This document shows, piece by piece, positions 6,033-30,090 of a DNA stretch of 30,360 nucleotides. Origin of the DNA: Candidatus Iainarchaeum sp. (GTDB lineage Archaea > Iainarchaeota > Iainarchaeia > Iainarchaeales > GCA-2688035). The first letter of the stretch is position 1. Every line of letters starts with the position of its first letter. Below the pieces are notes generated by a model. It was not told the origin of the DNA, made no database searches, and saw only the letters and a program-made list of their open reading frames with translations. A program made the translations under genes and the position numbers. The stretch spans positions 1 to 30,360 of the forward strand of contig JAQTNI010000012.1 of NCBI GenBank assembly GCA_028713935.1. The letters run 5' to 3'.

Positions 6033-6104
6033 GCCTGTGTAGTTCAGTGATAGAATGCCATCTTGGTAAGGTGGAGGTCGAGGGTTTGATCCCCTCCACA
6101 GGCT
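6033..6104 (+). tRNA. tRNA-Thr(GGU)
   Basis: Acceptor GCCTGTG/CACAGGC plus T; D-arm GTTC/GAAT; anticodon stem CCATC/GGTGG with loop TTGGTAA (GGT); T-arm GAGGG/TTTGATC/CCCTC. No intron. Confidence 0.9.
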
Positions 6105-9635: not shown

Positions 9636-9735
9636 TTTTTAAATTTCTTATTTTTGTTATTTTCTTGTTTTTATGCCGGTTTTTGGCATGCACAAAAAAT
9701 AAATAGCCAAAGGGACTAATTATCATTTGGTTTGC

Positions 9736-10419: not shown

Positions 10420-10551
10420 AAAGAAAACCTTGGAAAAGAAAGATGCTCAGCATCTAGTTCGCTATGCTCGCAAAAGCCCTGAAAAATTGAAACGATTTCT
10501 TTTAAAAACCAGCCAAACAAAAAATAATTTGCATTATTGAGAGTGAAGACT

Positions 10552-10640
10552 GCCTCGGTAGCTCAGCCTGGTGGAGCGTTCGACTCATAGGTTTTTATTG
10601 AGAAATCGAAAGGTCGCGGGTTCATATCCCGCCCGAGGCA
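10552..10640 (+). tRNA. tRNA with CAU anticodon (elongator Met, or Ile2 if C34 is modified) with a 15-nt intron
   Basis: Acceptor GCCTCGG/CCGAGGC plus A; D-arm GCTC/GAGC; anticodon stem TTCGA/TCGAA with CAT at 10586-10588. The insert GGTTTTTATTGAGAA (10590-10604) follows position 37. T-arm GCGGG/TTCATAT/CCCGC. It lacks the initiator-type A1:U72. Confidence 0.85.
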
Positions 10641-10709
10641 ATTTTTTAATTATCTGCTTATCGCGCATGTTTACCAAAGATTTGGATTCTTTTCTTTTGG
10701 CAACCTACA

Positions 10710-13700: not shown

Positions 13701-16700
13701 ACACAAGCAGCAGAGGAGAGGCAAAATTTAAGTTGGCGGGTGCAATGCCAGGCACAAAAATTGTTTTTAAGGCATTAAAAGACGGCTATTATGATGAGCC
13801 GGTTGAAAAAATAATAAGTGAAAAAGTATTTGAAATTTCAGAGGAAGCGCTTGAAGCGCAGATAGACACAAAAGAAGACACGCAGGAAACTCTTAGCACT
13901 GCAATATCAAACCTTACTGCCGCTGAACTTGAAATTTTTTCTGTTTCAATTTCAGGAAGCACAAAAAGCCTGCTTGACAAGGAAGCAATGGACAATTTTT
14001 TCTCTTCCCTCAAAGGGACAAAAATTCAGGCATTGGAAAGCAAAACAATTGAAATGGTAAAAGTGCAATTAAGCCAAGGCACAGAAATTGAAAAAGACGA
14101 AACACTTGCCTTGCAGCTTCTTGTTACTGTTATAGAGCCGAAAACAGGCAAAAAATTTGATGCAAAAATTCCTTTGGCAGTAAAAATCAGGCCTTTTCCA
14201 ACAGCGGCAATGAGCTGCATAAAAGTCGACAAGCAGGAATGGCTTGGCAGCACAATAGGCAATCATGCAGTGCTGGAACTCGAAATGGAAAACACCTGCT
14301 CTGAAGAGGGAAAAAGCGAAGTACTGGCAAGGTTATTGGCAAAAACAGTTTGGGCTGAAAATTCAATTGGAATTGTGGAAATTCTTGAAGCGGATTCTCC
14401 CGATGGCGCAGCGGAAATTTTAGGCGAAAACAACTGGAGAACAGTGATGCAGGAAATAGGGGCGGGAAGAAAAATAAAAGTAACACTGGTTTTCACGCCA
14501 AAGCCGGAAACTCTGGGAAAAACAGCGGAATTCAAAATAATTCTTGACGGGCAGAAAGAAACAGAACGCGGATTAAAATTTGTAGGCAGCACTGAAATAA
14601 ATGCAAAAATAGACATTGCAAACATTGGGCAATGCATAAAAACAGACAAAAGCCTGCTTGAAATAAAAAAAGGCGCAAGCTCTGCGGATTTTTCAATTGA
14701 CACTACGGGCTGCCAGGCAGCAGTGGAAATAGGGTTTTGCAGGAATGATGATGGCTGCAAAGGCGGGGCAGCAGAGGGCACAATACAATTAAGCGCAAAA
14801 AGCATTATGCTTTCCCCTTCCAATCCAAAGGCAAAAATAATTGTTTCAAAAGGCTCTATTGCGGGAATGTACGGCGTTAACATTGAAGCAAAAACCCAGA
14901 ACAGCGATTGGGAGCAGATAAAAACAATTGATGTTTTAATAGAGCCGAATGACAATGCATTGTTTACTCTTGACAAATACGAATTTTCAATTATTGGAAA
15001 CAGCGCTAAAGACAGCGCAACAGCATTCAACCCGAATCTAAGCGAAAATGTTGAAGTGATTGCGCCTGTTGATTCCTGGTACCAGAGCGTGCAAAACACT
15101 GAAAGCTTTTTTGACCCAGAGCTTGCAGGGACAGGAAAAACCCATCTTGAACTTGCAAATGCAAAAATTGCAGCGGATTTGGCAAAACAAAAAATGGAAG
15201 AAATGGCACAAAAAGCATCAGGAGAAGCAGACAAAGGCCAACAGCTAAGCGATGCCGCAAAAAAAGCCCTTGAACAGGCAAAACAAGATTCAGACCAGGC
15301 AGACCAAAAGGCACAGGATGTCACTAGCCAGGCAGGGCAATTGGCATCACTCGCTGGGCTTCTTCTTGGGCAAGGCCAGGCTGTCGAAGCAGCAGTTGCT
15401 GCAAACCCATTCTGCAAAGCGGAATTGGTGGCAGCAAAAGCAATGAATAAGGCATTACTGACTGCAAAAACAGCTACAATGGGTGCAAACACTGGGGCAC
15501 AGGCAGCATCAAGCGCAACAAGCCAGGGAAAAAATAATTGCGAACAAGGCCAACAAATGGGCAATCAGGGGCTGGACAATGCTGTTCTTGCACAAAAAGG
15601 GCCTTGTGAAACACAAACAATTTCCAGCAGGGCAGGGGAAGGCGCGCAACAGTCTGCACAGGCAGCACAGCAAATGATGCAGGCGGCACAGCAGGACCAG
15701 CAATGCGGGCAGCAAATGCAAAATGCTGGAACACAATTCGCCAAGGTTGGAACAAATCTTGCGGGAACAGGGGCACAAATCGGGATAGTGGAAACACAAT
15801 CACAAATAATTGCGGCATGTGTGACTGCAGGGCCAGCCCTTACTGCATTCAAAACAAAATTTTATGCATTCAAAGCAACTGAAAACGGATTGACAAGCGC
15901 AAATGCTGCAGCGCAAAGCCAAGCTGAAACAGCAAAACAATCCGCTGACCAGGCAAACAATGCTGCCCAAGCAGCAAATAACCAGAATAATATTGCGAAT
16001 GACCAGCTGCAAAAGCTTTCTGTTGTTGAAACAAATGCAGAGGAAGCCGCAGGATTTGGAAAAGGAAGGACAATTGGAATTCTTGGCTCTTATGTTGGAT
16101 TGGCAACTCTTGTTGGAAGCTACAAGGGAAATGCATACAATGCATATCTTGGAAACTGCCCAAACGGCTTCAAAAGCACTCTGCCAGATTTTGTCACAAA
16201 CCTTAAAGAAGATTCTTCAGACATTGTTCTGGACAATCAGAATATTGTCGGAAACTGGAATACTGAAGAGGCAAAAATTTTTGGCGAATACGAAAGCCAG
16301 ACAGCTGGAATTTCCTTTGAAAACCAAAACCTTGAATCCGAAAAGCCAGTTTATGCTCTTGCAAGATTATTGGCTTACAGGCACAAGCACGTAGAGCCAA
16401 CAACGATAATAACAGGAACATATGCGGGTGCAGGAACAGCAGATGCATCGGCAGCAGTTGCAGGAACAAGCTTCGGGCCTTTCAATGTGCCAGATGAAGA
16501 AGAAAAAATGCTTGTTGAACAAAAATTCCACTTGAAATTCATTGCAGGCGAAAAAAAAGCCTCGCCAGCAGCAAATTCCGATGATGCCTGCTTGAACGGC
16601 GCAATGTTTGGCATTACAGGGGAAAAAGCACTGCCAAAAATAAAATTGAATTGGAACTGGAATGAAAGCGAAGGAATTTCAGAAGACAATTGCATTGCGG

Positions 16701-18286
16701 AAAACAGCAAAGCCATTTATTGTGATGCAGCGCAATTCAGCATAATGGCAAGCAAGCGCCTTAAAACACTGCAGGAATTCGTGGAAAAAAATTCTTCCAT
16801 AAGCTGCCCAACAAACAATGCCATTGAAAGCCTGAAATGGATTGTTGACAAATGGAACCCATATATCAATGAAATCGGAGGCCAGCAGATTCCAACAGAC
16901 CTGCAGGAACTGAACCCCGAATGCTGGATGCCAAAATCAACATTTATTTACGATGGCAAGCCAGCAATAAATTATTATGTTGAGGAAGCAGACAGCAAAA
17001 AAAGCGTTTCCTGGACAAGCAAAATAAAAAGTCCGGAAGGGCTTGAAAAATACATAAGAAGCAATGTCCTGCTCATAAAAGACGGTTATTCTGAAAATTT
17101 CCAGAAAGACTTTGCAAATTATTACAGCACAGCAAAATTAATGGATGCGCCCGAATGGTTTGTAAAAAATTCAAGCGGAAAATGGCTTGATTATTTCCTC
17201 AACAACGAAAAATTAAAATTCTCGCAAAAATTTTTGGATTCAACTGAAATGCCGAACGCAGGAATGTTTGAATCATTCTTCAACATTGATTTTGGGAAAA
17301 ACTGGGGATTTTTCAGCGAAGCAAAAACCCCGAAAGCAACAGTAAAAATAGAATTGAATTTCAAAAAAGAGCCTGAAGAAGGAAGCATGTTTTATTACCT
17401 GCCATTTGACGCGGAAATAGGATCGCAGGGAGGGGCAGGCAGGGAAGGTTATGGATTAAGTTATCAGAACAGCGAAAAAGAATTCCTTGTTGCAAATGCA
17501 AACAATGTGCCAATTTCAACAGTTTCAGGCAATGGCAGCGGAATTGCAGCGCTTTACACAAACACAACAGAAGACATAAGAATAACCAACAGCAGTTTTG
17601 CAAAAAGAGGCTTATTGCTCGGCATAAAAGAAACAGGAAGCCAGAATGAAAAACAACTGGATTTTTATCCCACAAACGCAACTCCGGCAATTGCAGAAAT
17701 AAGCTCTGAACAAAGCACAGTGCCTTTCAGCGCATATTACAAAGTCACTGAAGCCGGAGTTCCTGCAAAAGCAACTGAAAATTTTTCATTCTGGACAGCT
17801 GCAGGGGAATGCAAAAATTTCGATGAAAAGCCATTATTGGAAAAATTCAATTCCTTGCCTGACAGGTATGCGGAAGAGCTTGATTCCGCAGAACAAGCCT
17901 CGGATTCCTATGCTTTTGACTTTGAAAAAGCAGACAGAAGCGGCAAACTTTACCTTAAAACAATTTTTTACACTCCTGCAAGCAAGGCATATGCAGTCAC
18001 AGGAATTCTTAACCCTGACCCAATGCAAAAAGCTGCAATCACATTCAAAAGTGCAAACACTGGCTTCCAGGCAGGCATTGATCTTGATGGAACAGGGCAA
18101 AAATTCAACAACAGAAAAGCACAGGAAAATGCAGCAGGACTAGATAATCTTCTTGAACTTGTAAAAGAAAAAAGGGTTTGCATTACAAACAGCCAGGAAG
18201 AAACAAATCTCTGGTGGAACGAACTTCCCCTCCTAGAAACAGACACGGGCAATGGCTCAATAGCAGGCTTTAACGGAGAATGCTAA
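10778..18286 (+). CDS. giant (2502 aa) N-terminally membrane-anchored surface protein with CarboxypepD_reg-like beta-sandwich repeats, a Gln/Ala-rich helical module and a large uncharacterised C-terminal region
   Basis: Single uninterrupted ORF. TM anchor IVFGIALAAIAIAAVLTALFFAF (aa about 41-63). There are six tandem repeats (aa about 69-590) plus a seventh (about 930-1000), of the type IxVxVxD...PxxxAxVxL...TDxxGxxxF..ExGxY, e.g. IEVSVVDEDELPVENAKVVLKN...TDAKGIAKFSGVSEGAYYAYA. Q/A-rich segment at nt about 15148-16050. Many N-x-S/T sequons and paired Cys. Confidence 0.85.
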   Translation: MPGRMDRLLAQKPDKEFEFEPTLAKSQGEGFSWRVLKNKKIVFGIALAAIAIAAVLTALFFAFPAQEGNFEIIVKNSDGSALSGIEVKYSVDGLEATAKTNSGGKIFLHAKKDSEISVLIEQQSINGTDYSVYSSDFVVADSFSKEILLEKLGETIDERTIVFQKTDGSRITGKLITIKLSCANGFRLAQETATDSDKDGQIKIVKPEECNILSARLIAPLDYRQANFTIGSSSSIVQLESNSEASPKGEIRVKIVDSENNLVTATDFTVQLIAAEGFVRDEKKTDGRGEIVFTDVELGTYFISAFDYAGEYEIMQDSAVVISSGLEQEKTLFAAKSTKGTIDVSVIDKATKIGIPNATVQLFAASGDLLAEETTGSEGFTVKFSVKEEGTYKVSAMQENYLPNETTVETRGEATIELEELTSGNSGIIEVSVVDEDELPVENAKVVLKNPAGETMPYPAKYTDAKGIAKFSGVSEGAYYAYAEKFPTFGDNSADAMEIDIRGKNNFIVRLDIGTATIKISAFESSEIMLEESEAEIYAENGELLQRIAMPDGTAEFSTKADKKVFAIAKMPGYNSVQTIPMQLWPNETIEFNLQMRQKNSGALPEMKFEGIFNGSQKTGMLKAGKEYLALFSIEIQENNEISRGGIHFRVGEEQSLETEKIAITGALFAMPDSVYGGKSFTPNLGYDADLSDSITEAKWVNIEFVPGSEGKKYFVGFEFKVKKETQPNGLLALHYRAWFESNSGKFLRIPEDSELGDSESTASKQGLYAKTLDLEFGEGIDTDCGESVCYGNEWIFGNHEKELQRENYSLGLDRDYNLNFEIKNNSDAAIEKPEISIIGSNAEDVEFKNLIAYNKAKKTLESKKGNIENFSLDGIGQGETVNFNLLFTPKKPSLGYIETTISSNGKEIFSGTIWVDTQAGKTMALEIKPEEIPAFFEADINALVSTEDEGPVQDAEIWMTRTLADNSIAKEKANTSSRGEAKFKLAGAMPGTKIVFKALKDGYYDEPVEKIISEKVFEISEEALEAQIDTKEDTQETLSTAISNLTAAELEIFSVSISGSTKSLLDKEAMDNFFSSLKGTKIQALESKTIEMVKVQLSQGTEIEKDETLALQLLVTVIEPKTGKKFDAKIPLAVKIRPFPTAAMSCIKVDKQEWLGSTIGNHAVLELEMENTCSEEGKSEVLARLLAKTVWAENSIGIVEILEADSPDGAAEILGENNWRTVMQEIGAGRKIKVTLVFTPKPETLGKTAEFKIILDGQKETERGLKFVGSTEINAKIDIANIGQCIKTDKSLLEIKKGASSADFSIDTTGCQAAVEIGFCRNDDGCKGGAAEGTIQLSAKSIMLSPSNPKAKIIVSKGSIAGMYGVNIEAKTQNSDWEQIKTIDVLIEPNDNALFTLDKYEFSIIGNSAKDSATAFNPNLSENVEVIAPVDSWYQSVQNTESFFDPELAGTGKTHLELANAKIAADLAKQKMEEMAQKASGEADKGQQLSDAAKKALEQAKQDSDQADQKAQDVTSQAGQLASLAGLLLGQGQAVEAAVAANPFCKAELVAAKAMNKALLTAKTATMGANTGAQAASSATSQGKNNCEQGQQMGNQGLDNAVLAQKGPCETQTISSRAGEGAQQSAQAAQQMMQAAQQDQQCGQQMQNAGTQFAKVGTNLAGTGAQIGIVETQSQIIAACVTAGPALTAFKTKFYAFKATENGLTSANAAAQSQAETAKQSADQANNAAQAANNQNNIANDQLQKLSVVETNAEEAAGFGKGRTIGILGSYVGLATLVGSYKGNAYNAYLGNCPNGFKSTLPDFVTNLKEDSSDIVLDNQNIVGNWNTEEAKIFGEYESQTAGISFENQNLESEKPVYALARLLAYRHKHVEPTTIITGTYAGAGTADASAAVAGTSFGPFNVPDEEEKMLVEQKFHLKFIAGEKKASPAANSDDACLNGAMFGITGEKALPKIKLNWNWNESEGISEDNCIAENSKAIYCDAAQFSIMASKRLKTLQEFVEKNSSISCPTNNAIESLKWIVDKWNPYINEIGGQQIPTDLQELNPECWMPKSTFIYDGKPAINYYVEEADSKKSVSWTSKIKSPEGLEKYIRSNVLLIKDGYSENFQKDFANYYSTAKLMDAPEWFVKNSSGKWLDYFLNNEKLKFSQKFLDSTEMPNAGMFESFFNIDFGKNWGFFSEAKTPKATVKIELNFKKEPEEGSMFYYLPFDAEIGSQGGAGREGYGLSYQNSEKEFLVANANNVPISTVSGNGSGIAALYTNTTEDIRITNSSFAKRGLLLGIKETGSQNEKQLDFYPTNATPAIAEISSEQSTVPFSAYYKVTEAGVPAKATENFSFWTAAGECKNFDEKPLLEKFNSLPDRYAEELDSAEQASDSYAFDFEKADRSGKLYLKTIFYTPASKAYAVTGILNPDPMQKAAITFKSANTGFQAGIDLDGTGQKFNNRKAQENAAGLDNLLELVKEKRVCITNSQEETNLWWNELPLLETDTGNGSIAGFNGEC

Positions 18287-20051: not shown

Positions 20052-20543
20052 ATGAAAAAAGTTGATTTTCAAGAAATCGTGGCCAAGGCAAAAAATCTGG
20101 CAAAATACAACAAAACATGGCATTTTCATATGCTTGGAAGAGATTGCAAGTTCAACAACAACAGGGGAAAATTCAGAATAACCTTTGAGGATGAATCAAG
20201 TGGCAAAAGTTTTTACTCTGTTTTTGATAACAAACCTATTAAGGAATCAAAAAAGCTTGCTGATTTAATGTACGGACAAGGTTTTCTTAGGAAAAAAGAA
20301 AAAGGAGAACATAACCCTGAATTTGACTTAATCTTGAAAAAAGCGAAAGAACTGACTGAACAGGGAATAGAATGGCACCATCACCATCTGCACCCAAATT
20401 GTATATTCAATAAGCTCAAAGGAAAACACTGCATTGTTCTTGAGGACCCAAAAACCCCGAATTCATTAATTGCCGTATATAATCAAAAGCCAATGGAAGA
20501 TTTAGTAAAAATTGAAAAATTGTTCTACAAGGATTCCAAATAG
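20052..20543 (+). CDS. hypothetical protein built from two tandem copies of a His/Cys-containing domain of about 65 aa
   Basis: Internal duplication: AKAKNLAKYNKTWHFHMLGRDCKFNNNRGKFRITFED...VFDNKPIKESKKLADLMY aligns with KKAKELTEQGIEWHHHHLHPNCIFNKLKGKHCIVLED...VYNQKPMEDLVKIEKLFY. Confidence 0.6.
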   Translation: MKKVDFQEIVAKAKNLAKYNKTWHFHMLGRDCKFNNNRGKFRITFEDESSGKSFYSVFDNKPIKESKKLADLMYGQGFLRKKEKGEHNPEFDLILKKAKELTEQGIEWHHHHLHPNCIFNKLKGKHCIVLEDPKTPNSLIAVYNQKPMEDLVKIEKLFYKDSK

Positions 20544-20628
20544 CACGCTTTCTTATCAGCGGAAATTCACTGGAAAAATGCTTTTAAACTTCCTTATGGA
20601 TAATTTGTTTTAGAAAAGGGGTTTTGAT

Positions 20629-21477
20629 ATGGCTGCAAACCAGGATTCCGCTTTGGTTGTTTTTCAGAACAAGAAAATAAGGCGGGTATGGCATGAGAAC
20701 GAATGGTACTTTTCAGTGGTTGATGTAGTTGAGGCATTGACAGACAGCCCGACACCACGGCAGTATTGGGGCAAAGTAAAAGACAGAGAATTTTCACAGC
20801 TTGAGCTGTCCCCAATTTGGGTACAACTGAAATTGCCTTCGAGCGATGGCAAGGAATATGCTACAGATTGTGCAAACACCAAATCAATGTTTAGAATTAT
20901 TCAATCTATTCCATCGCCAAAAGCAGAGCCGTTCAAGCGCTGGCTCGCCCAAGTTGGATATGAACGCGTCCAAGAAATCGAAAATCCCGAATTGTCCCAG
21001 AAACGAATGAAAGAACTCTACAAAGCGAAAGGTTATTCGGATGAATGGATTGAAAAAAGAGTCAGAGGAATTGCGGTTAGGCAGGAATTGACTGATGAAT
21101 GGAAAAAACGCGATATTCGGGAAGAGCGGGAATTTGCGATTTTGACCAATGAAATAAGCCAGGCAACTTTCGGCAAAACAGTTGAAGAATACAAAAAATT
21201 CAAAAGATTGAACAAGGAAAATTTGCGCGACCACATGACGGATTTAGAATTAATCTTCACCATGCTCGGCGAAGCCTCCACAACCAAAATCGCGCAAAGC
21301 AAAGATGCGCAAGGATTCATTCAAAACAAAAAAGCTGCGCGATTAGGCGGACAAATTGCTGGTGGTGCAAGAAAAAAACTTGAACTGGAATCAGGAGAAA
21401 AAATCAGCACTCCAGAAAACTATCTGGGCGAACCAGAAACAAAGAAAAGAAAAAAATTAAAAGAGCCAATGAATTGA
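20629..21477 (+). CDS. Bro-N domain protein (DinD / phage antirepressor-like family)
   Basis: The N-terminus VFQNKKIRRVWHENEWYFSVVDVVEALTDS fits the Bro-N pattern (F...IR....g..WF.a.DV..aL). The downstream KAEPFKRWLAQVGYERVQEIENPE region is typical of DinD-like proteins. Lys-rich tail. Confidence 0.65.
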   Translation: MAANQDSALVVFQNKKIRRVWHENEWYFSVVDVVEALTDSPTPRQYWGKVKDREFSQLELSPIWVQLKLPSSDGKEYATDCANTKSMFRIIQSIPSPKAEPFKRWLAQVGYERVQEIENPELSQKRMKELYKAKGYSDEWIEKRVRGIAVRQELTDEWKKRDIREEREFAILTNEISQATFGKTVEEYKKFKRLNKENLRDHMTDLELIFTMLGEASTTKIAQSKDAQGFIQNKKAARLGGQIAGGARKKLELESGEKISTPENYLGEPETKKRKKLKEPMN

Positions 21478-21657
21478 TAGGGCATTTATTTTTCTATTTT
21501 TTGCCCAGCAGGGGCACTAAACCTTCTATTTCTGTAGCATAAGAGGCAAAGAAAAAAAGCCAGAACAGAAACCGCATTAATCAAACTCCAAAATGAGGCG
21601 GCAAGTAATAAATATAATAATATGTATATAATATTGTATACATATAAGTTGATTTAT

Positions 21658-22677
21658 ATGAAATTGATACGCGCTTCATTTGATGGATTAGTAGAAGTTG
21701 GCGAAAAAATGTTGCTCGCGGAGATAAAAGAGTATTCCGATGAATACATCAGAAACCACGGAATTTCTTTAACCAAAAATGAGGTTAAGTCATTCCACGA
21801 GCTAAGAGAAAGGACTTGCTTGGTGGTTTACAACACTACAAAGAAAAAATATTTTTTGTTCAGCGGCCAAGACATATCTGATTACTTGGACCGACAAAAA
21901 AGAAGCTTTGCTACAACACACAGAGCTTTGTACAGAATGTTTTCCAAGAAAGGGGAACCAAAAGTAAAAATATTCGACCCCGTTTTTGAGGAAAAAATCT
22001 TAGAGCTTAGCCGTAAGACACTGCAATTCCTTAAGCCGAAATTAGCAAACATTGAAGGAGTATTTCTCTTTGGGAGCTTTGCGAGAAATGAGCAAAAGGA
22101 AAAATCAGACATTGACTTGCTTGTGATTGCGGATAAAAAAATTGATTTGGGCAAAAAGGAAAAATTTGATTTTTTAATCAAGACAAGGGAACAATTTGAA
22201 ATAGAAATCAGGACAGACTCAACTCTTTTTCCAAGACAGGTTGTAAGCGAGGCAAAGCCAATTTTGAATGAATCCCTGTTGGATGAATTAAAAAAAGTAA
22301 AGCCAAAGCCGGATTTTAAGGAAGTTTTTGATTCTACACTCGGGGCTTTCAAAAAAACAAAAGAGTTATTGGAAATGAACCATGGCACTGGGCTTTTGGA
22401 ATCAAATGTAGCAATATACTCCCTCATTCTTAGGCTAAAAACTCTTTTCATTATCCAATGCCATAAAAAAAGCATAGCCTTTTCAAACAAAAAATTCAAG
22501 GAGCTGCTGGAAAAATATGGCTTCAGCGAACAAAAAATCAATGCCCTGCTGGAAGTCTGGCAAGCCGAAAGGGATAATAAAAAAACCAGCCAAAAAATTT
22601 TATTGGCTGATGCCCTAAAGCTTTTTGATGCAGCCAAAATAGAATTTTTAAAGACCGAAGCACTGGTGAAAAAATGA
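21658..22677 (+). CDS. nucleotidyltransferase (MNT/Pol-beta superfamily) domain fusion protein
   Basis: NTase signature GVFLFGSFARNEQKEKSDIDLLVIADKK (G-S-x9-12-D-x-D), flanked by an unknown N-terminal domain of about 130 aa and a helical C-terminal region of about 150 aa. I prefer the ATG at 21658; the track start at 21622 lies in an AT-rich promoter-like palindrome. Confidence 0.65.
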   Translation: MKLIRASFDGLVEVGEKMLLAEIKEYSDEYIRNHGISLTKNEVKSFHELRERTCLVVYNTTKKKYFLFSGQDISDYLDRQKRSFATTHRALYRMFSKKGEPKVKIFDPVFEEKILELSRKTLQFLKPKLANIEGVFLFGSFARNEQKEKSDIDLLVIADKKIDLGKKEKFDFLIKTREQFEIEIRTDSTLFPRQVVSEAKPILNESLLDELKKVKPKPDFKEVFDSTLGAFKKTKELLEMNHGTGLLESNVAIYSLILRLKTLFIIQCHKKSIAFSNKKFKELLEKYGFSEQKINALLEVWQAERDNKKTSQKILLADALKLFDAAKIEFLKTEALVKK

Positions 22678-23068: not shown

Positions 23069-23120
23069 CAAAACAGAGTTTTCAAACTTGTTCTTAAAAA
23101 AATTCTGATGCTTGGTTGCA

Positions 23121-23720
23121 ATGGCTGACGGCTTGACAGCAAAAATCAGGGCTAGCATTTCAAAGCTCATTGACAGCGGAGCACACCTTGATGCCTACAA
23201 AACAACTGAAATCATTGCAAAAAAGCTCGGGTTAAGCCAGCGCATGATAAACTATACTCACATAGAAATCAGGAATACCTTAAATGAGTTTGGCTTCAAG
23301 TCAGCGCCTTACCCTGAAAGAGTTCTGTTCCTGCCGCATTGCCTTAAAAATTCTGAAAAGTGCAGGGCAAAATACACTGATGAAGGGTTGCAGTGCATGG
23401 ATTGCGGGGCGTGCCAGGTTCCGGAATTGAAAAAAATTGCAAAAGAATTAGGGTATAAGGCAGTTTTCATCACACCAGGAGGTAGCATGGTGGAAAAGCT
23501 TATTGAAAAACACAGGCCAAAAGCAGTCCTTGGGCTCTGCTGCTACGAAGAGGCAAACCTTGCTTTTGACAAGCTAAAAGGAAAAAACATTGCGCCACAG
23601 GCAGTGCTGCTATTGCGTGATGGATGCAGAGACACTCTTGCAAACATAGAAGAAGTAAAGGAAAAAATGCAGATGGCTGACAAAAAAATTTTTGAGGCAA
23701 ACTCAGCCAATATTGAATAA
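23121..23720 (+). CDS. DUF116 family protein (conserved Cys-rich, function unknown)
   Basis: LFLPHCLKNSEKC...LQCMDCGACQV...GYKAVFITPGGSMV...VLGLCCYEE matches my recollection of the DUF116/COG1852 pattern. ATG at 23121; the track start is the TTG at 23112. Confidence 0.6.
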   Translation: MADGLTAKIRASISKLIDSGAHLDAYKTTEIIAKKLGLSQRMINYTHIEIRNTLNEFGFKSAPYPERVLFLPHCLKNSEKCRAKYTDEGLQCMDCGACQVPELKKIAKELGYKAVFITPGGSMVEKLIEKHRPKAVLGLCCYEEANLAFDKLKGKNIAPQAVLLLRDGCRDTLANIEEVKEKMQMADKKIFEANSANIE

Positions 23721-24365
23721 TTCCAAAAAATCTTTTTTTGAAATCGCGCACAAAAAATTGTTTTCAAGGCAGGCAACCCCTTTTTTTGGCAAAAATCCCC
23801 AGATATTTTCAAAGCCGTTTTTTTCAACGGCTTCAAAATATTTTGTGACATTCAGCAACTGTGCCTTTTCCAGCAAAACCCTTGGAATTTTTGGCTTATG
23901 CTTCAAAGCCATGCAAAAAGAATATTCAAGCGCCAGATCAATTTTTTCAATTGAAATAAAAGGAAACAATTCGCATTGCCGAGGCCTGGCCCTGTAAATT
24001 TTACACAAATTCTTGGACAGGAAAATGCATGCGCCATTTTTGCCGCGCTTGAAAGCAATGCTCGGCAGCACAATAAAATGGGAAGGCAATGGCTCAAAGT
24101 GCTTTTTCAATTTTGAAGCAATTTTTTTTGGCAAAAAAACGCTTGAAACAACAAGCGGCCCGCCAGGGCCTTCCACTGGAAAAAGATTCAGGTGCAAAAC
24201 GCAGTTTTTTTCAATGAAATTTTTTTCAGAAATACGCAGAAGCCTCGCCTGCTTTTCCAGCTCTTTCGGCAGCACAGTTATCCAGTAGCGCCTGCAGCAT
24301 TCAGAACAAGCCAAACCTACACAATCAACCTTCATAAGTGCCGAAAAATAATCAATTATTTGCAA
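23703..24365 (-). CDS. YkgJ/UPF0153-like zinc/iron-chelating CxxCxxCC domain protein
   Basis: CSECCRRYW near the N-terminus and ACIFLSKNLCKIYRARPRQCELFPF near the middle. The start is either the TTG at 24365 (abutting the upstream stop) or the ATG at 24335. The 3' end overlaps the DUF116 gene convergently by 18 nt. Confidence 0.6.
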   Translation of the reverse strand: MQIIDYFSALMKVDCVGLACSECCRRYWITVLPKELEKQARLLRISEKNFIEKNCVLHLNLFPVEGPGGPLVVSSVFLPKKIASKLKKHFEPLPSHFIVLPSIAFKRGKNGACIFLSKNLCKIYRARPRQCELFPFISIEKIDLALEYSFCMALKHKPKIPRVLLEKAQLLNVTKYFEAVEKNGFENIWGFLPKKGVACLENNFLCAISKKDFLELFNIG

Positions 24366-24959
24366 CTACCTTGGTTCGTGCTTTACTCCTTCAGAGTATG
24401 GCTTGCAGACAATTTCCTGGATTGCTAGGTCAAAAAATTGGCTGCTATAAGCAGATTTTATTACAATGCAAGTGTCTGCTCCCAGGCCTGTGCCTGCAAT
24501 AGCCATTACCTTTTCTGCATTGGGAATTAATCCTGCATCCGCAGCCATTAGGGAAATTTCTACGCCAACCTTAGTGCCTTCGCCCAGAACTCTCAAAGTA
24601 TCACCCATTACGATTACTGGCCCTGCAGTGCCCCATCTTGCCTTGACTGCCCTTTCAATGCCGGAAAGGCAGTGCGTGCCCCTATGCATCCTGACTTTTA
24701 ATTTTTCTAATTTTGGAACATTTTTGTCCCATTGTTCAATGGTTTCTTTTTTTGTTGAGGCTGAAACAGTGACTGCCACAATATTGACAGCCAGATTCCT
24801 GAATTTTTCAGCTGCCTTCAGGGCAGTAGCACCGCTATGCGAAGCAACAACAATATGCCTTATGCCGCCTTCTTTTAATCTTGCATAGGCAGAATCCAAT
24901 GCATCAGAAGTATTTTTCTCTCCTGGCTCTTCAAAATAAAAAATTTTTCTTTCTTTCAT
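24366..24959 (-). CDS. stand-alone pyruvate kinase C-terminal (alpha/beta) domain-like protein
   Basis: 197 aa. The segments IRHIVVASHSGATALKAAE, IVAVT and MAIAGTGLGADTCIV resemble PK_C-domain-only archaeal proteins (from memory). Confidence 0.55.
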   Translation of the reverse strand: MKERKIFYFEEPGEKNTSDALDSAYARLKEGGIRHIVVASHSGATALKAAEKFRNLAVNIVAVTVSASTKKETIEQWDKNVPKLEKLKVRMHRGTHCLSGIERAVKARWGTAGPVIVMGDTLRVLGEGTKVGVEISLMAADAGLIPNAEKVMAIAGTGLGADTCIVIKSAYSSQFFDLAIQEIVCKPYSEGVKHEPR

Positions 24960-24963
24960 AAAA

Positions 24964-25036
24964 AGCCTCTGGTGGGATTCGAACCCACAACCCCCGGTTT
25001 ACAAAACCGGAGCAAAAACCGTTATGCTTCAGAGGC
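24964..25036 (-). tRNA. tRNA-Thr(UGU)
   Basis: Read on the minus strand: acceptor GCCTCTG/CAGAGGC plus T; D-arm GCAT/TTGC (13:22 mismatch); anticodon stem CCGGT/ACCGG with loop TTTGTAA (TGT); T-arm GTGGG/TTCGAAT/CCCAC. It ends 4 nt upstream of the PK_C-like start codon. Confidence 0.85.
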
Positions 25037-25107
25037 CCAAGTTAACAGCATAATAATTCGTTTTCAAAAAAGTATTTAAACCAACAGGAATAAAAAGCAT
25101 TTAAAAA

Positions 25108-26703
25108 TCAGTGTTTCCCGATTCCGTTCGGGACCTGGACCTTGCTTGGCTGTTTTGCTTCTTCAAGCTTTTTCCTGCAAAGCGCCCTTTTGTAAAAATC
25201 ATCGGAAAGCTTTCTGCCGAATTTTTGTTCCCATTCTTTTATTGGAAGGCCGAATTCTTTCTGTATCTTGTCCCTGTACCATTCGGGCACAACATTGAAG
25301 GCGCAGAAAGGCACAATTGGCATTTCTTTGGAGGGAGTTGCATAATGGATGCAGCAGCTTTTCACCCTGTCAATGTCATAATTGTACAAATCCATAAAAT
25401 GCATCATGCCAATGAACATGCTGTTCTTGTGGAAAATTCCCAGGGCATCATAATCGTGCTTTATGAAGACATCAAACAAAATTTTTCCAAAATTAAGTCC
25501 TTTAGGGGCATTGCTTTTGTCGATAAAAGAATTGAATTTGAAAAGCATTTCAGCGCCAACCCAGAGCTTGCTTTTGCCGTTTTCAAGCTCTGCTGCCTTT
25601 TCATCCAAAAATTCAATAAGTGCGGGAACATCCAAAAATCTTGTGATTGGAATCATTTTGTTTCCTTCCTTGAAAACATAGGTTCCCATGCCGCAGGCAA
25701 AATGCGAGGAAAGCTCATACTGCGGCTTTTTTGTCATCTGCTCAATAAACCTGCTCAAAGGCATTACAGTTGGCACAGGATAAAAATCGTCCCTTGAAAT
25801 TTCCCCTGCTGTCTGAGCCTCAATTCTTTTTATTACATCAGGAATAGTAATCCTGAATTGCTCCCTTTTTTTCTGTGGCATTCTTCCTACAAGCGAAACA
25901 GGCTGGAAATTAATTGCCCTTATAATATCAATATTCTGGAACCCGAAACGCAGAATGTCCCCGACTTCGTTGTCATTGACGCTGTTAATGACTGTCGGCA
26001 CAAGCACAATACCAAGGCCTGCTTTTCTGCAATTGTCCATTGCCAATGGAACTTCCCAATGGTTTTTCGGGTTTGTTTTTTCAGTAACCCCATCAAAGCT
26101 AAGGTAAACAGTATTGATGCCAGCATTCCTCACTTCAGAAGCAAGATTTTCTTTGAGGGCAAGGTTGACTCCGTCAGTATTCAATTGCACATGCTCAATT
26201 CCGTTTTCTTTTATTATCCTGATTATGTCAAGCAGGTCTTTCCTCAAAGTAGGCTCTCCGCCTGTAAGCTGGATTGCATTGCAGGGAACAGGCTTTTCAT
26301 TCCGCAGGTTTAGAACCATTTCCTTTACCTGTTCAAGGGTTGGCTCAAAAACATAGCCTGCTTTTTCCGCGAAAAAAAAGCAGTACCAGCAGTTCAAATC
26401 ACACCTGTTTGTAATAACCATGTTTGCAAGCGCTGTGTGGCCTTTGTGCTGCGGGCATAAGCCGCAGTCTTTAGGGCAGTCTTTTTCAACCTTGGTGCTT
26501 GGGTTTTCAATTACTTTTGCTTCCCTGCCATAAGAAGCGGCTTTTTTGTACATTTCAGAGTCGCCCCAGTAAAGCTCCCTGAATTTTCCGTGTTCAGGGC
26601 AGGTTTTTTCAATCCAGACTTTTCCCGCTTCTTCAAAAATAGATGCTTTCAAAAAAGAAAGGCATTCAGGGCACAGGGAAAGTGTTTCTTTCAGGTTAGT
26701 CAT
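25108..26703 (-). CDS. radical SAM protein, COG1964 / MJ0619 family (tetraether lipid synthase Tes / GDGT-MAS-like)
   Basis: 531 aa. N-terminal Zn-ribbon-like CPEC...CPEHG; extra cluster motif CPKDCGLCPQH; radical SAM CDLNCWYC (CX3CX2C); QLTGGEPT; INFQPVS; C-terminal CCIHYATP...PFCAFN. This architecture matches my recollection of MJ0619-type enzymes. Confidence 0.7.
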   Translation of the reverse strand: MTNLKETLSLCPECLSFLKASIFEEAGKVWIEKTCPEHGKFRELYWGDSEMYKKAASYGREAKVIENPSTKVEKDCPKDCGLCPQHKGHTALANMVITNRCDLNCWYCFFFAEKAGYVFEPTLEQVKEMVLNLRNEKPVPCNAIQLTGGEPTLRKDLLDIIRIIKENGIEHVQLNTDGVNLALKENLASEVRNAGINTVYLSFDGVTEKTNPKNHWEVPLAMDNCRKAGLGIVLVPTVINSVNDNEVGDILRFGFQNIDIIRAINFQPVSLVGRMPQKKREQFRITIPDVIKRIEAQTAGEISRDDFYPVPTVMPLSRFIEQMTKKPQYELSSHFACGMGTYVFKEGNKMIPITRFLDVPALIEFLDEKAAELENGKSKLWVGAEMLFKFNSFIDKSNAPKGLNFGKILFDVFIKHDYDALGIFHKNSMFIGMMHFMDLYNYDIDRVKSCCIHYATPSKEMPIVPFCAFNVVPEWYRDKIQKEFGLPIKEWEQKFGRKLSDDFYKRALCRKKLEEAKQPSKVQVPNGIGKH

Positions 26704-26801
26704 AATCTCAAACTTTTAATAGTTTTTAAAAGTTCTAATAGTAATAACCGTGTGCATAAGTATTAAAAAAGGTTTTCGGTTGTTTCTAATAAGTGTTTAA
26801 A

Positions 26802-27293
26802 ATGGGGGAAAATTCGGACAAAGTTGCGGAAATAGAGAAACAAATTTTTTCCTCTTTTGCTGCTGTTGCAAAAACAATCGGCTACAGCGATTTGCATGGA
26901 AAAATAATTGCGGCGCTCACTGTTGAAAACAAGCCTGTTTCGCTTCAGGAACTTGCAAAAAAACTTGGCTACAGCCCTGCAATGCTTTCCCTGAGCATTG
27001 ATTTTTTGGAAGTGCTTGGCGTTGTAAAAAGAATCAAGAAAACAGGCGACAGGCAGCTTTATGTCACTTTCCAGGGAAACTTATTGGACTGCCTGAGAAA
27101 GGCAATCCTGTTCAAGGCAGACCAGAGCATTTCAGAATCAATGATTGCATTTGAACAGCAAAAAAAAGATTTGCAGCAGATAAATGATTCCCCTGAAAAG
27201 GGAAAAGTTCTAAGGGCACTGAACATTCTGCAGAAAGAAATAAACAGGCTGCAGAAATACCTTAAAATTCTTTCAAAAATAAAACTACCCTAG
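26802..27293 (+). CDS. winged-helix transcriptional regulator (MarR/GbsR-like)
   Basis: KIIAALTVENKPVSLQELAKKLGYSPAMLSLSIDFLEVLGVVKRIKKTGDRQLY is an HTH plus wing. It is divergent from the radical SAM gene, and the C-terminus is coiled-coil-like. Confidence 0.6.
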   Translation: MGENSDKVAEIEKQIFSSFAAVAKTIGYSDLHGKIIAALTVENKPVSLQELAKKLGYSPAMLSLSIDFLEVLGVVKRIKKTGDRQLYVTFQGNLLDCLRKAILFKADQSISESMIAFEQQKKDLQQINDSPEKGKVLRALNILQKEINRLQKYLKILSKIKLP

Positions 27294-27301
27294 GTGATTC
27301 A

Positions 27302-27745
27302 ATGGAAAAAACAATTCAGTTCGTGGCGAATTATGATGAATGGCAGGCAGTGAAAAAGCTTGGAATTGATGAAAAGACTGATCCAAAAACAATAATGGAA
27401 TTTTTGGCAAGCCTTGGCACAAGCCTTGACAACAAGATAGAAGCCAATCTTGGAAAAATCGTTGACCTGAAAAAAATTGATGCCGCAATAAGCGAATTAA
27501 AAATTGGAAAAACAGATTCTGAAATTGCTGAAATCCTGGCCGATGTTAACAGCAGGAAAATAAATGCAATTATAAATGAAATCTGCGAAAAAGAAGGCAG
27601 GCAGCCAAATGAACAGAGAGAGCTGAAAGGCTTCTGCAGGGTTTATGCAATGAAAACAGCGCTTAAAAAATGCGGCCTGAATGTTGATTATTCTGGCATT
27701 GAAATTCCGGGAATGAAAAGAATAATGAAAAAAAAGAAGGAATAA
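27302..27745 (+). CDS. hypothetical protein
   Basis: 147-aa ORF beginning 9 nt after the regulator stop. Coding-like composition, Lys-rich tail, no motif I recognise. Confidence 0.45.
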   Translation: MEKTIQFVANYDEWQAVKKLGIDEKTDPKTIMEFLASLGTSLDNKIEANLGKIVDLKKIDAAISELKIGKTDSEIAEILADVNSRKINAIINEICEKEGRQPNEQRELKGFCRVYAMKTALKKCGLNVDYSGIEIPGMKRIMKKKKE

Positions 27746-27773
27746 AAAATTAAAAGGGAGAAATGTTTTTGCT

Positions 27774-28637
27774 ATGCTTGAACAGGTAATGCAGTTTGAC
27801 AATGCCTTTTTGCATGCAGTGCAGGCAATTTCTTCACAGCCATTGGACCTGCTAATGGCCGGCATTACGCTTTTTGGAAACCCTGTTTTCTGGCTGCTGA
27901 TAGTTGCTTTTCTCTACTGGCAGGGAAAAGAGCACGAATCATTCCATCTTGTAAACCTCATTGCAATCAGCTCAATTGTTATTGGCGCAGTGAAAAACAT
28001 TGTTGCAAGGCCAAGGCCTTCCGCAAACGATTTCAGGGTTGTTTCAACTGACAATTTCTCCCTTGACACGTATTCTTTTCCGTCAGGCCATTCTTCCCTG
28101 ATCGCGGCAAACTTTTTCTACTTAAAAAATTTTTTGAAAAAAAATTTGAAAATAATTTTTGCAATAATTGCGGTGCTCGTGGCTTTTTCAAGGCTTTACC
28201 TTGGCATGCATTACCTGACAGATGTGATTGCCGGCCTTATTATTGGCTCAATAATTGGCTGGGCATATTACAGGCTTGCGGGAAAAATTGCGCACAGCAG
28301 GCTTCAACTTACAAAATCGGGCGATGCAATCGCAATAATCGCAATCCTGGCAGCGGCAATAATCCTTGTCGGCTTAATGCAGTCAATTCCGCTCAGTGCA
28401 GCGCTAATTGGATATTATCTCGGATTTTTTTCTCTGAAAGAAATCGGGCTTCATGGAAAAGAGCTTTCAAGGCAAAAATTCATTACAAAACAGGCAATCG
28501 GCTTCATAGTGCTTCTGGGCATAACCGCTTATGCATATTCAGGGCCTGCTTTTTCGGTTTTATGGTATGGGCTCGCAGGATTCTGGATCAGCTGCCTCTG
28601 GCCCCTTATTTTTGACAAAACAATAACACACGACTAA
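27774..28637 (+). CDS. PAP2 superfamily lipid phosphatase (membrane-bound)
   Basis: All three PAP2 motifs are present: KNIVARPRP (KxxxxxxRP), PSGHSS (PSGH) and SRLYLGMHYLTDV (SRxxxxxHxxxD). Multiple TM helices. Confidence 0.8.
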   Translation: MLEQVMQFDNAFLHAVQAISSQPLDLLMAGITLFGNPVFWLLIVAFLYWQGKEHESFHLVNLIAISSIVIGAVKNIVARPRPSANDFRVVSTDNFSLDTYSFPSGHSSLIAANFFYLKNFLKKNLKIIFAIIAVLVAFSRLYLGMHYLTDVIAGLIIGSIIGWAYYRLAGKIAHSRLQLTKSGDAIAIIAILAAAIILVGLMQSIPLSAALIGYYLGFFSLKEIGLHGKELSRQKFITKQAIGFIVLLGITAYAYSGPAFSVLWYGLAGFWISCLWPLIFDKTITHD

Positions 28638-28708
28638 AATTGCATAAAAACCATTTCTTTTCCCTTAACAAAAAAAATAAAAACAACAAAAGGGCATATT
28701 AATTATAC

Positions 28709-29509
28709 ATGCCTCAAGGTAATTGGATTATGCCTGCAAAAAGAAAACCAAAAAAAGAAATTGAAAAAAGATTTGAAGATTTTGGGGAAGAAATGGAAGG
28801 TTTCGGAAAAAAATTTGAATGCCCAGCCCAAAGGCCTTTTGGCATTATCTGGCCAATTGTCTCAAGCATTTTTGGAATAATACTCCTTGCAATAGCAATC
28901 TGGCTGCTTGGTTTTATAAGCAGGGAAAGTGGAATCGGCTTTCTTGCCGCAATATCAAATTTTTTGCTTAATTACATAGGCCTGTTTTTTATACTTTCAA
29001 TTTTTTTTTCATACGCGGATTATTTCCGCAGAATAGCCAAAAAAGAATTCGCGCCTTTCTCGCCAATCGCAGGCGCGGCAGGAGTGACATTTGCATTTTG
29101 GATACTTGCGCACTTATTGCTTATAGCAAATAGTTACATTTCAATTGCGATATTGCAAAAAATCGCGCTTTTTGCCCTTGCACAAAAATACCTGATTTTT
29201 GTTTTTTTCCTTTTTGTTTTGTACCTTGCATTTTTGCTTGGAAGGAAAGAGGAAGAAAAAATTATTCGGGAGGAAAAACACTTGAACAAAAAAAGTGAAA
29301 AACAATCGGGAATCAAAAGGCTTTACAGGTCTGGAAAAGAAAAACTTCTGGGCGGGGTGTGCGGAGGAATAGCGGAATATTTTAACATAGACCCAGTAAT
29401 TGTGCGCCTGTTATGGATAGCGCTTTGCTTTGCAGGCGGGGCAGGCATAATTCTCTATATAATAGCCTGGATAATTATCCCAAGAAACCCTGAACACAAA
29501 TGGAACTGA
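28709..29509 (+). CDS. membrane protein with a C-terminal PspC domain
   Basis: LYRSGKEKLLGGVCGGIAEYFNIDPVIVRLLWIALCFAGGAGIILYIIAWIIIP is a canonical PspC domain. It is preceded by about 4 TM helices. Confidence 0.75.
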   Translation: MPQGNWIMPAKRKPKKEIEKRFEDFGEEMEGFGKKFECPAQRPFGIIWPIVSSIFGIILLAIAIWLLGFISRESGIGFLAAISNFLLNYIGLFFILSIFFSYADYFRRIAKKEFAPFSPIAGAAGVTFAFWILAHLLLIANSYISIAILQKIALFALAQKYLIFVFFLFVLYLAFLLGRKEEEKIIREEKHLNKKSEKQSGIKRLYRSGKEKLLGGVCGGIAEYFNIDPVIVRLLWIALCFAGGAGIILYIIAWIIIPRNPEHKWN

Positions 29510-30090
29510 ACCTGATGCCAAAAAATTCCCTGCTGGGCTTCTTTGAAACAATAAACAAATTAAAGCACACAAAAAGGACTGGCTGGGTGCTTTGCGGAGT
29601 GAAAAATGCGGAAAGCGTTGCAGAGCATTCATTCAGAGTGGCAGTAATGGCTTTTTTTCTTGCAAAAAAATTAAAATGCAATTCTGAAAAACTAGTGAAA
29701 ATGTGCCTGTTGCACGACCTTCATGAAAGCATTTCTGGCGACTTGATTCTTGATTACTCAAAATATGGCGAAAAACTCGGGGGCCTTGGCAAAGAAGAAA
29801 AGGCGGCAAAGGAAAAAAAAGCATTCGAGGAATTAACACAAATTATTGGACAAAAGGATTCAAAAGGATTCAGGGAATCATGGCTTGAATTTGAAGAAGG
29901 GAAAACAAAAGAGGCAATAATTGCAAAAGAACTTGATGTGCTCGAAATGATGATCCAAGTTGCCGAATACCAAAAAAACAAAAACTTTGAAATTCCCCTC
30001 TGGCCAATCTGGATAAAGGAAAACAGAGGGAGAATAAAAAACCCTGAATTAAAAAAAATTTTGTCTGAAATTGAAAAACAAATGGTTTAG
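29500..30090 (+). CDS. HD-domain phosphohydrolase (YfbR-like 5'-deoxynucleotidase family)
   Basis: KRTGW, ESVAEHSFRVAVMA and LLHDLHESISGD are the H...HD...D metal-binding pattern of HD_3/YfbR-type proteins. Confidence 0.75.
   Translation: MELNLMPKNSLLGFFETINKLKHTKRTGWVLCGVKNAESVAEHSFRVAVMAFFLAKKLKCNSEKLVKMCLLHDLHESISGDLILDYSKYGEKLGGLGKEEKAAKEKKAFEELTQIIGQKDSKGFRESWLEFEEGKTKEAIIAKELDVLEMMIQVAEYQKNKNFEIPLWPIWIKENRGRIKNPELKKILSEIEKQMV

Follow-up and report, generated by a model that had tools for sequence, protein, structure and literature searches.

Can an archaeon of the DPANN group make membrane-spanning tetraether lipids with a synthase of its own, and would such a synthesis be under dedicated transcriptional control? 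The question is raised by a stretch of 30,360 nucleotides from Candidatus Iainarchaeum sp. (GenBank assembly GCA_028713935.1, contig JAQTNI010000012.1, positions 1 to 30,360), the whole of which is called the window here. It carries tes, a gene for a radical S-adenosylmethionine (SAM) protein that a sequence-only reading had already attributed to the tetraether lipid synthase family (Tes or GDGT-MAS, named after glycerol dialkyl glycerol tetraethers, GDGTs), together with a divergent winged helix-turn-helix (wHTH) regulator gene and, between the two, a palindrome. Tetraether lipids underpin the stability of archaeal membranes as well as palaeotemperature proxies, and the synthase has been identified only in 2022. 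Tes homologues have been reported from every archaeal superphylum, DPANN among them, with Huber-, Parv- and Pacearchaeota as the sole lineages without them; the DPANN matches have been called unexpected and contamination has been left as a possibility (Zeng et al., 2022); the supplementary text of that study does not list Diapherotrites or Aenigmarchaeota by name. As Tes in metagenome-assembled genomes (MAGs) of DPANN has thus been published, the core of the finding is not new. Our overall reading, to which we assign a probability of about 0.72, is that the window holds a native and intact Tes orthologue joined to a module of a GbsR-type regulator and a promoter palindrome, and that DUF2666 and PAP2 belong to a lineage backbone.

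The family assignment of Tes has proven robust. The protein scores 728.7 bits against the NCBIfam model NF045702 "tetraether lipid synthase Tes" (cutoff 450), whereas its match to the sister family TrsS (NF045646) covers only residues 6–328 and stays with 351.1 bits below the cutoff of 490. Pfam assigns residues 4–46 to Zn_ribbon_HMPTM and residues 95–253 to Radical_SAM (92 bits), and residues 5–494 align with chain residues 23–514 of the solved structure of MJ0619 (PDB 7TOL) at E=4.8e-151, with an identity of 49% between the two proteins. The MJ0619 enzyme contains a rubredoxin-like site (C9X2C12X20C33X2H36), a [4Fe-4S] cluster on C73/C77/C80 and a histidine, the CX3CX2C cluster typical of radical SAM enzymes, and a C-terminal cluster with a labile Met439 and a conserved Tyr459 (Lloyd et al., 2022). 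All of these ligands are present in the window Tes and are conserved or near-invariant in the other 83 members of the alignment of 84 Tes sequences from which ligand conservation has been judged. C11, C14, C35 and H38 of the rubredoxin-like CX2CX20CX2H site align with C9, C12, C33 and H36 of MJ0619; the N-terminal auxiliary cluster ligands C76/C80/C83 and H86 are invariant in 84/84 sequences; the radical SAM cluster resides on C101/C105/C108; and M434 and Y454, which correspond to Met439 and Tyr459, mark the C-terminal auxiliary site together with the C450-C451...C467 motif. C337, C450 and C467 are invariant throughout the alignment, which suggests that they serve as the ligands of the C-terminal cluster. 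The equivalents of Gln268 and Ser271 of MJ0619 have been kept as well.

Consequently, the three motifs on which the sequence-only reading had based its assignment, namely a Zn-ribbon, an extra CxxxCxxC cluster and a C-terminal CC...C motif, are real and coincide with the metal ligands of MJ0619, and all open reading frames (ORFs) it had named lie where it had placed them. Only its "Zn ribbon" has to be divided: the motif (C11-X2-C14-X20-C35-X2-H38) stands, but the zinc does not, as the site holds a rubredoxin-like Fe in the crystal structure. Taken together, the ORF is predicted to be a full-length, intact Tes/GDGT-MAS orthologue. By homology with MJ0619, the enzyme would employ the rubredoxin-like Fe site and three [4Fe-4S] clusters, namely that of the radical-SAM core and two auxiliary ones. 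It would couple saturated phytanyl chains of archaeol-type phospholipids in pairs, through their terminal methyl carbons, to biphytanyl chains, resulting in GDGT and/or macrocyclic archaeol.

Regarding the origin of the locus, the gene content assigns the window to an archaeon of the Iainarchaeota (Diapherotrites, DPANN), because the nearest Tes loci, the flanking genes, the DUF2666 homologues and the backbone order all belong to Iainarchaeum/Diapherotrites; Ca. Iainarchaeum has been placed in the kingdom Nanobdellati, which equals DPANN. The guess of a DPANN-type host has therefore been right. The best genomic Tes match is found in Ca. Iainarchaeum DeMMO3_25 with 90% identity (locus L004, identical to L081), followed by an unclassified archaeon with 81% (L001), and other Iainarchaeum/Diapherotrites MAGs reach about 65%; an exact match to the window Tes has been sought in public assemblies, and no record has been found. 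Eight flanking genes of L004 are 63–93% identical to those of the window and mostly in the same order. The Diapherotrites contig L085 shows HisRS, RpiA, DUF4430, DUF2666 and PAP2 in the order of the window at 35–67% identity, and the backbone gene order is matched by L083 and L085. In a neighbour-joining tree, the window Tes falls inside a clade of 13 members, in which all taxon-labelled archaeal members are Iainarchaeum/Diapherotrites and which have synteny in common; Bathyarchaeia, Hadarchaeota and Aenigmatarchaeota form groups of their own, and the Tes clades thus track taxonomy. The GC content is even across the window, with about 0.38–0.43 around tes. Hence tes is native to its Iainarchaeota host and not a contaminant. 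One contig of this type, L013 (JAFCBY010000016.1), is labelled "Candidatus Falkowbacteria bacterium", yet carries an Iainarchaeota-type tes/DUF2666/DUF116 block; it has probably been mis-binned or mislabelled.

The regulator gene that diverges from tes, which the sequence-only reading had recognised as a wHTH protein, can now be described as a GbsR/MJ0223-type member of the MarR superfamily. Pfam matches of the single protein to MarR and HTH_24 are weak or marginal; a profile built from 20 members of its family matches PDB 1KU9 (MJ0223) over the full length (positions 6–155 on 4–148, E=3e-10), and homologues have been annotated by JGI as "GbsR (MarR family)". The equivalog of the choline repressor CudC (NF047500) gives a weak but full-length match of 28.6 bits, far below its cutoff of 218, and the protein is therefore not an orthologue of this choline regulator but only related to it. 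The arrangement with the wHTH gene directly upstream of tes and divergent from it is seen in 31 distinct loci, which belong to Iainarchaeota, Aenigmatarchaeota, unclassified archaea and a closed 833-kb chromosome.

Alignment of the intergenic regions of these wHTH-tes loci has revealed a palindrome, AACTTTTAA-N6-TTAAAAGTT, which is perfect in the window, lies there 7 nt upstream of the tes ATG, occurs only once and has found 0 matches in 100 shuffles. The TATA-like sequence TTTTAAAAA in its left half, at about −29 to −21 relative to the tes ATG, stands where a leaderless archaeal mRNA would have its TATA box; another, separate AT-rich box lies closer to the start of the regulator gene. Across phyla, the palindrome has kept its outer AAC/GTT positions and a constant spacer of 6 nt. 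Changes in the half-sites comprise 30 pair-breaking and 2 compensatory ones, so that no covariation is seen, and the predicted stability of a corresponding RNA hairpin amounts to only −6.5 kcal/mol; on both grounds an RNA hairpin has been rejected in favour of an element that acts as DNA. In one related locus, L082 (10001–10060), the Tes gene has been called with 551 aa from a start that precedes the palindrome (10023–10046), so that the latter would fall inside the coding sequence; the true start probably lies about 20 codons further downstream.

Regulator, palindrome and tes have been found together from whichever of the three the search was started. Starting from tes, the palindrome (at most 3 mismatches) lies within 60 nt upstream in 30/31 loci with the wHTH gene, as compared with 4 weak matches among 52 loci without it, and elsewhere in 1.15 Mb only 10 three-mismatch matches occur. 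Within the Iainarchaeota clade, L005, L012 and L013 have lost the wHTH gene and are without the palindrome (best match 7 mismatches), and L014 has kept a degenerate relic of it. Starting from the motif, a metagenome scan has returned at least 120 exact matches; among those listed, a tes start adjoins 16, of which 14 have a wHTH gene on the opposite side, and the Tes proteins found in this way go down to 43% identity to the window Tes and still score above the Tes cutoff (686–724 bits). Most of the other listed matches come from AT-rich DNA and seem to be due to chance. Starting from the regulator, all three proteins from long contigs (3/3) have a divergent tes 60–94 nt away and a palindrome with 1–4 mismatches. 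As judged by these genome comparisons, the three elements co-occur in Iainarchaeota, Aenigmatarchaeota and related genomes.

A scheme can be proposed for these elements, in which tes and the divergent GbsR/MJ0223-type regulator would form a separable two-gene module. A dimer of the regulator would bind the palindrome, which overlaps the TATA-like box of the essentially leaderless tes promoter, and owing to this overlap the bound regulator would block the initiation of tes transcription until a ligand or signal frees it. From comparative genomics we infer that the GbsR-like protein would repress tes at the palindrome, that is, as a repressor-operator switch for tetraether synthesis. In the searchable Tes literature, no paper has been found that ties GbsR-type regulators to tetraether synthesis, and the wHTH-palindrome module on the tes promoter is apparently a new, undescribed detail.

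Several points weigh against the overall reading. Shared ancestry partly confounds the joint occurrence of wHTH and palindrome; another point is the distance of 15 bp between the half-site centres in relation to known MarR-DNA complexes; and part of the conservation may be promoter conservation, given the TATA-like core within the palindrome. Moreover, the Tes tree is a quick neighbour-joining tree rooted on MJ0619 as the sole characterised reference. Finally, Halobacteria with Tes homologues have shown no GDGTs in published lipid analyses (Zeng et al., 2022), and membership of the family is therefore no guarantee of the product.

The third of these points can be extended to an explanation of its own, namely that the palindrome is merely a conserved core promoter (transcription factor B recognition element, TATA box and proximal element, possibly bidirectional) and that the wHTH protein has another target or controls its own gene alone. 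In favour of this, a good archaeal TATA-like sequence occupies the middle of the left half-site at the distance expected for a leaderless mRNA, and AT-rich palindromes arise by chance in AT-rich DNA, as 104 of the at least 120 metagenome matches are without tes nearby among the matches listed. A core promoter alone, however, does not readily account for outer AAC/GTT positions and a fixed spacer that persist across phyla, nor for a palindrome that is gone within one clade where the regulator gene has been lost. Furthermore, tes promoters of Bathyarchaeia and Hadarchaeota, which have a divergent winged-helix regulator of the TrmB family directly upstream, lack the palindrome; a TrmB-family regulator has been found in this place in 15 loci (Bathyarchaeia, Hadarchaeota, Pelearchaeum, Nitrosopumilales). 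We thus consider the core-promoter explanation unlikely, while granting it appreciable weight beside the operator reading. The coordinates of the module and of its neighbours are collected in Table 1.

Table 1. Features of the tes region, given in coordinates of the window
Feature	Coordinates	Strand	Basis
DUF116 (arCOG02078/COG1852) cysteine-rich predicted metal-binding protein, convergent with tes	23112..23720	+	Pfam PF01976, 135 bits
CxxCxxCC (PF03692) protein, between DUF116 and tes	23703-24365	-	Pfam
Stand-alone PK_C-like protein, between DUF116 and tes	24366-24959	-	Pfam
tRNA-Thr(TGT), directly downstream of tes	24963..25037	-	ARAGORN and Rfam, 62.4 bits
tes, predicted tetraether lipid synthase (GDGT-MAS) orthologue, 531 aa, radical SAM, four metal sites	25108..26703	-	NF045702, PDB 7TOL, ligands
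Perfect palindrome, 24 bp, candidate wHTH operator	26711..26734		Intergenic alignment
GbsR/MJ0223-type MarR-superfamily winged-helix regulator, 163 aa, divergent from tes	26802..27293 (longest ORF from GTG 26793)	+	Profile match, synteny
DUF2666 protein, 147 aa	27302..27745	+	Pfam PF10869, 55.8 bits
PAP2 integral-membrane lipid phosphate phosphatase, 287 aa	27774..28637	+	Pfam PAP2 (PF01569), 88.8 bits, cutoff 27.2
Membrane protein with C-terminal PspC domain, 266 aa	28709..29509	+	Pfam PspC, 91.6 bits, residues 203-259
HD_3 / YfbR-like phosphohydrolase	29500..30090	+	Pfam HD_3, 139 bits

The genes that follow the regulator had been grouped by the sequence-only reading into a lipid- and envelope-themed neighbourhood, comprising a protein of 147 aa without assigned function, a PAP2 lipid phosphatase and a PspC-domain membrane-stress protein. 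The first exists and has turned out to be a DUF2666 protein, a family of which all named homologues come from Ca. Diapherotrites and for which no paper mentioning it has been found; its AlphaFold2 model (pLDDT 70) has given no Foldseek match to the PDB below E=0.4. The PAP2 phosphatase has been confirmed with its three catalytic motifs KX6RP / PSGH / SRX5HX3D intact (K74x6RP82, P103SGH106, S139Rx5H146x3D150). Among solved structures, B. subtilis YodM/PgpB (5JKI) and LpxE are its closest relatives, and it stays under every NCBIfam equivalog cutoff (SepP 69.1 vs 250, PgpB 31.8 vs 261, LpxE 30.4 vs 177 bits). The third protein does contain the PspC domain but fails the membrane-stress equivalog TIGR02978 (54.9 bits, cutoff 104); no PspA/IM30 match has been seen among the window ORFs scanned, and no homologue of the PspC gene exists in any related locus. 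At exactly its position, between PAP2 and the HD gene, L081 carries at 4035–4853 a gene of the BacA undecaprenyl-diphosphatase family (PF02673). The HD_3 gene overlaps the PspC gene by 10 nt and is conserved in L004/L081.

DUF2666 starts 8 nt past the wHTH stop, and the two genes are therefore probably co-transcribed; as the gaps are short and conserved among the loci (wHTH-DUF2666 at most 10 nt, DUF2666-PAP2 about 28 nt), co-transcription of wHTH, DUF2666 and PAP2 is suggested. In the proposed scheme, DUF2666 and PAP2 would probably be co-transcribed with the regulator, and the PspC-domain and HD genes downstream may be as well. One may postulate a dedicated lipid/envelope operon of wHTH, DUF2666, PAP2, PspC and HD that works together with Tes, with PAP2 for instance dephosphorylating one tetraether head group or recycling polyprenyl diphosphate. 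Apart from the very short gaps, such an operon would explain why PAP2 has been kept beside tes in 12 loci, why DUF2666 and PAP2 still adjoin tes where the wHTH gene has been lost, and why the closest relative adds with BacA a second family of polyprenyl-diphosphate phosphatases. The adjacency of DUF2666 and PAP2 to tes, however, is limited to 12–13 loci of a single Iainarchaeota-like clade, in which the general gene order is conserved too. L085 carries DUF2666 and PAP2 at a distance of 6 kb from each other, but no Tes, wHTH or DUF116, and the two are therefore backbone genes that are not tied to tes. Likewise, the PspC gene is unique to the window, and PAP2 scores under every equivalog cutoff. 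A dedicated operon is hence doubtful, and DUF2666 and PAP2 would represent conserved Iainarchaeota backbone that is not demonstrably part of Tes function. Of the lipid/envelope neighbourhood, the gene list has thus held, and the functional cluster for the most part has not, considering the backbone synteny, the locus without tes and the non-conserved PspC gene.

On the other side of tes, a DUF116 gene is found downstream of tes in 10 distinct loci besides the window, all of them in the Iainarchaeota-like clade, and it is missing in L085 together with tes and wHTH. DUF116 has been predicted to be a ferredoxin-like metal-binding protein (PMC5898192); that it acts as the reductant partner of the radical SAM enzyme is pure speculation. 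Of the two genes in between, the CxxCxxCC gene is conserved in L004, L001 and L002, and the PK_C-like gene is not conserved.

A further explanation concerns the supply of lipids, as the sequence-only reading had imagined a host without de novo synthesis of archaeal lipids, in which Tes and PAP2 remodel diether lipids scavenged from a partner organism into tetraethers. The host does belong to DPANN, and one reconstruction has placed a loss of glycerol-1-phosphate (G1P) dehydrogenase in the ancestor shared by Iainarchaeota, B1Sed10-29 and Micrarchaeota. GDGT-MAS, moreover, acts on finished saturated lipids, the head groups of which are bound non-specifically (Lloyd et al., 2022), so that scavenged archaeol lipids would be chemically acceptable. 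Against this stand repeated descriptions of Iainarchaeota as putatively free-living with a mevalonate pathway and genes of membrane-lipid biosynthesis; they are the DPANN lineage that is most often described as putatively free-living and lipid-making. In L022, moreover, the de novo pathway enzyme CDP-archaeol synthase CarS (PF01864; 6378–7361) is encoded directly downstream of the GbsR-like regulator of a regulator-tes module, and CarS adjoins tes in many Hadarchaeota loci (e.g., L056, L057). Together with the occurrence of PAP2 and DUF2666 without tes in L085, this leaves the remodelling of scavenged lipids somewhat disfavoured for Iainarchaeota and rather improbable as an account of the window, and its premise of a host without lipid synthesis has become doubtful, even if one study infers the loss of G1P dehydrogenase.

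It is also conceivable that a member of the Tes family yields a product other than GDGT, either macrocyclic archaeol only or that of another C-C coupling, as suspected for Halobacterial and bacterial homologues. The Tes-bearing Halobacteria mentioned above would fit this possibility, as would the fact that MJ0619 produces both macrocyclic archaeol and GDGT (Lloyd et al., 2022). In view of the high score on the Tes equivalog and the conservation of every catalytic feature, and with the nearest non-DPANN relatives (from Bathyarchaeia, Hadarchaeota and Nitrososphaerales) annotated as Tes, we regard a different product as improbable and an orthologous function as the better reading. Least of all does a mis-binned or chimeric contig, carrying the Tes of a host or another archaeon, explain the locus: it has been rejected as very improbable on synteny and tree coherence, since, despite the possibility put forward for DPANN MAGs by Zeng et al. 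(2022) and the binning errors that do happen, as the Falkowbacteria label of L013 illustrates, tes lies inside a 30-kb contig flanked by the Diapherotrites-specific DUF2666 and the HisRS/RpiA/DUF4430 backbone, its arrangement is repeated in at least 12 independent assemblies, the Tes clades agree with taxonomy and the GC content is even over the window.

On the point left open by Zeng et al. (2022), the window and its relatives hence show that tes is native, syntenic and intact in DPANN; some DPANN lineages can thus probably produce or complete monolayer lipids of their own. The regulator and the 24-bp palindrome provide a concrete, testable handle on a possible control of tetraether synthesis; no such control has been found described. 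In a far-reaching and rather improbable extension, Tes and the GbsR-like repressor might constitute a portable "monolayer switch", by which genome-reduced DPANN (Iainarchaeota, Aenigmatarchaeota and relatives) turn diether lipids, possibly from other archaea, into membrane-spanning tetraethers on demand, following a small-molecule or lipid signal that is sensed by the repressor; if true, it would be the first case of a transcriptional control dedicated to GDGT synthesis. The contribution is nevertheless incremental and leaves the current understanding unchanged.

Several other features of the window have been recorded on the side. A free-standing LAGLIDADG_3 ORF of 401 aa (6044–7249, − strand), the 3' end of which overlaps a tRNA-Thr(GGT) (6033–6104, + strand), has homologues of 57–63% identity directly downstream of tes in L004 and L001, and some Tes genes contain an intein with a LAGLIDADG domain (L208, probably also L155 and L200); the ORF may be an intein-derived or mobile homing endonuclease. 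A tRNA of 89–91 nt at 10551–10641 (+ strand; Rfam 57 bits), to which ARAGORN has assigned no anticodon, probably contains an intron. The giant ORF of 2502 aa at 10778–18286 (+ strand) probably encodes a surface protein. The only domains recognised in it are of the Ig-like and CarboxypepD_reg types and lie close to the N-terminus, L001 retains part of the protein with 54% identity over 681 aa, and no tandem repeats have been found in the gene; at 15–16 kb of the window the GC content rises up to 0.48 with an AT skew of 0.40. Both ribose-5-phosphate isomerases, RpiB (LacAB_rpiB; 137–598, + strand) and RpiA (9727–10419, + strand), are encoded within 10 kb. An ORF of no assigned function (20052–20543), a BRO-N protein (20629–21477) and a nucleotidyltransferase (21622–22677), all on the + strand, have no counterpart in syntenic relatives, and this group (20052–22677) may be an insertion derived from a mobile element or virus.

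Among known systems, the closest are the GDGT-MAS/Tes enzymes MJ0619 of Methanocaldococcus jannaschii (PDB 7TOL/7TOM) and MA_1486 of Methanosarcina acetivorans. The window Tes has the same four-domain architecture as MJ0619 over the full length and identical ligand patterns at all metal sites; it differs from both in its DPANN host and in the GbsR-type regulator and palindromic promoter element that accompany its gene. The TrsS (seleno)protein shares the N-terminal Zn-ribbon/rubredoxin part and the radical-SAM core, whereas the C-terminal domain of the window protein, with lipid pocket and cluster, is of the Tes type. The PAP2 protein resembles YodM/PgpB, LpxE and SepP in its three catalytic motifs and the core membrane topology, but is extended at its C-terminus by about 120 aa, in which further hydrophobic segments occur.

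The regulator, in turn, belongs with the GbsR-type MarR proteins, which include B. subtilis GbsR and the choline-responsive CudC repressors; its profile matches their structural prototype MJ0223 (1KU9) over the full length, wHTH and C-terminal helix included, and the arrangement is that of GbsR and CudC, with a divergently transcribed (here predicted) repressor and a palindrome on the target promoter; the predicted target, however, is the gene of a lipid-modifying radical SAM enzyme and not an osmoprotectant gene. A divergent winged-helix regulator right upstream is equally found at the tes loci of Hadarchaeota and Bathyarchaeia, which differ from the window in that the regulator belongs to the TrmB family, no palindrome is present and tes often lies beside CarS. 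A divergent regulator next to tes therefore seems to be a recurring theme, a role that would be filled by different protein families.

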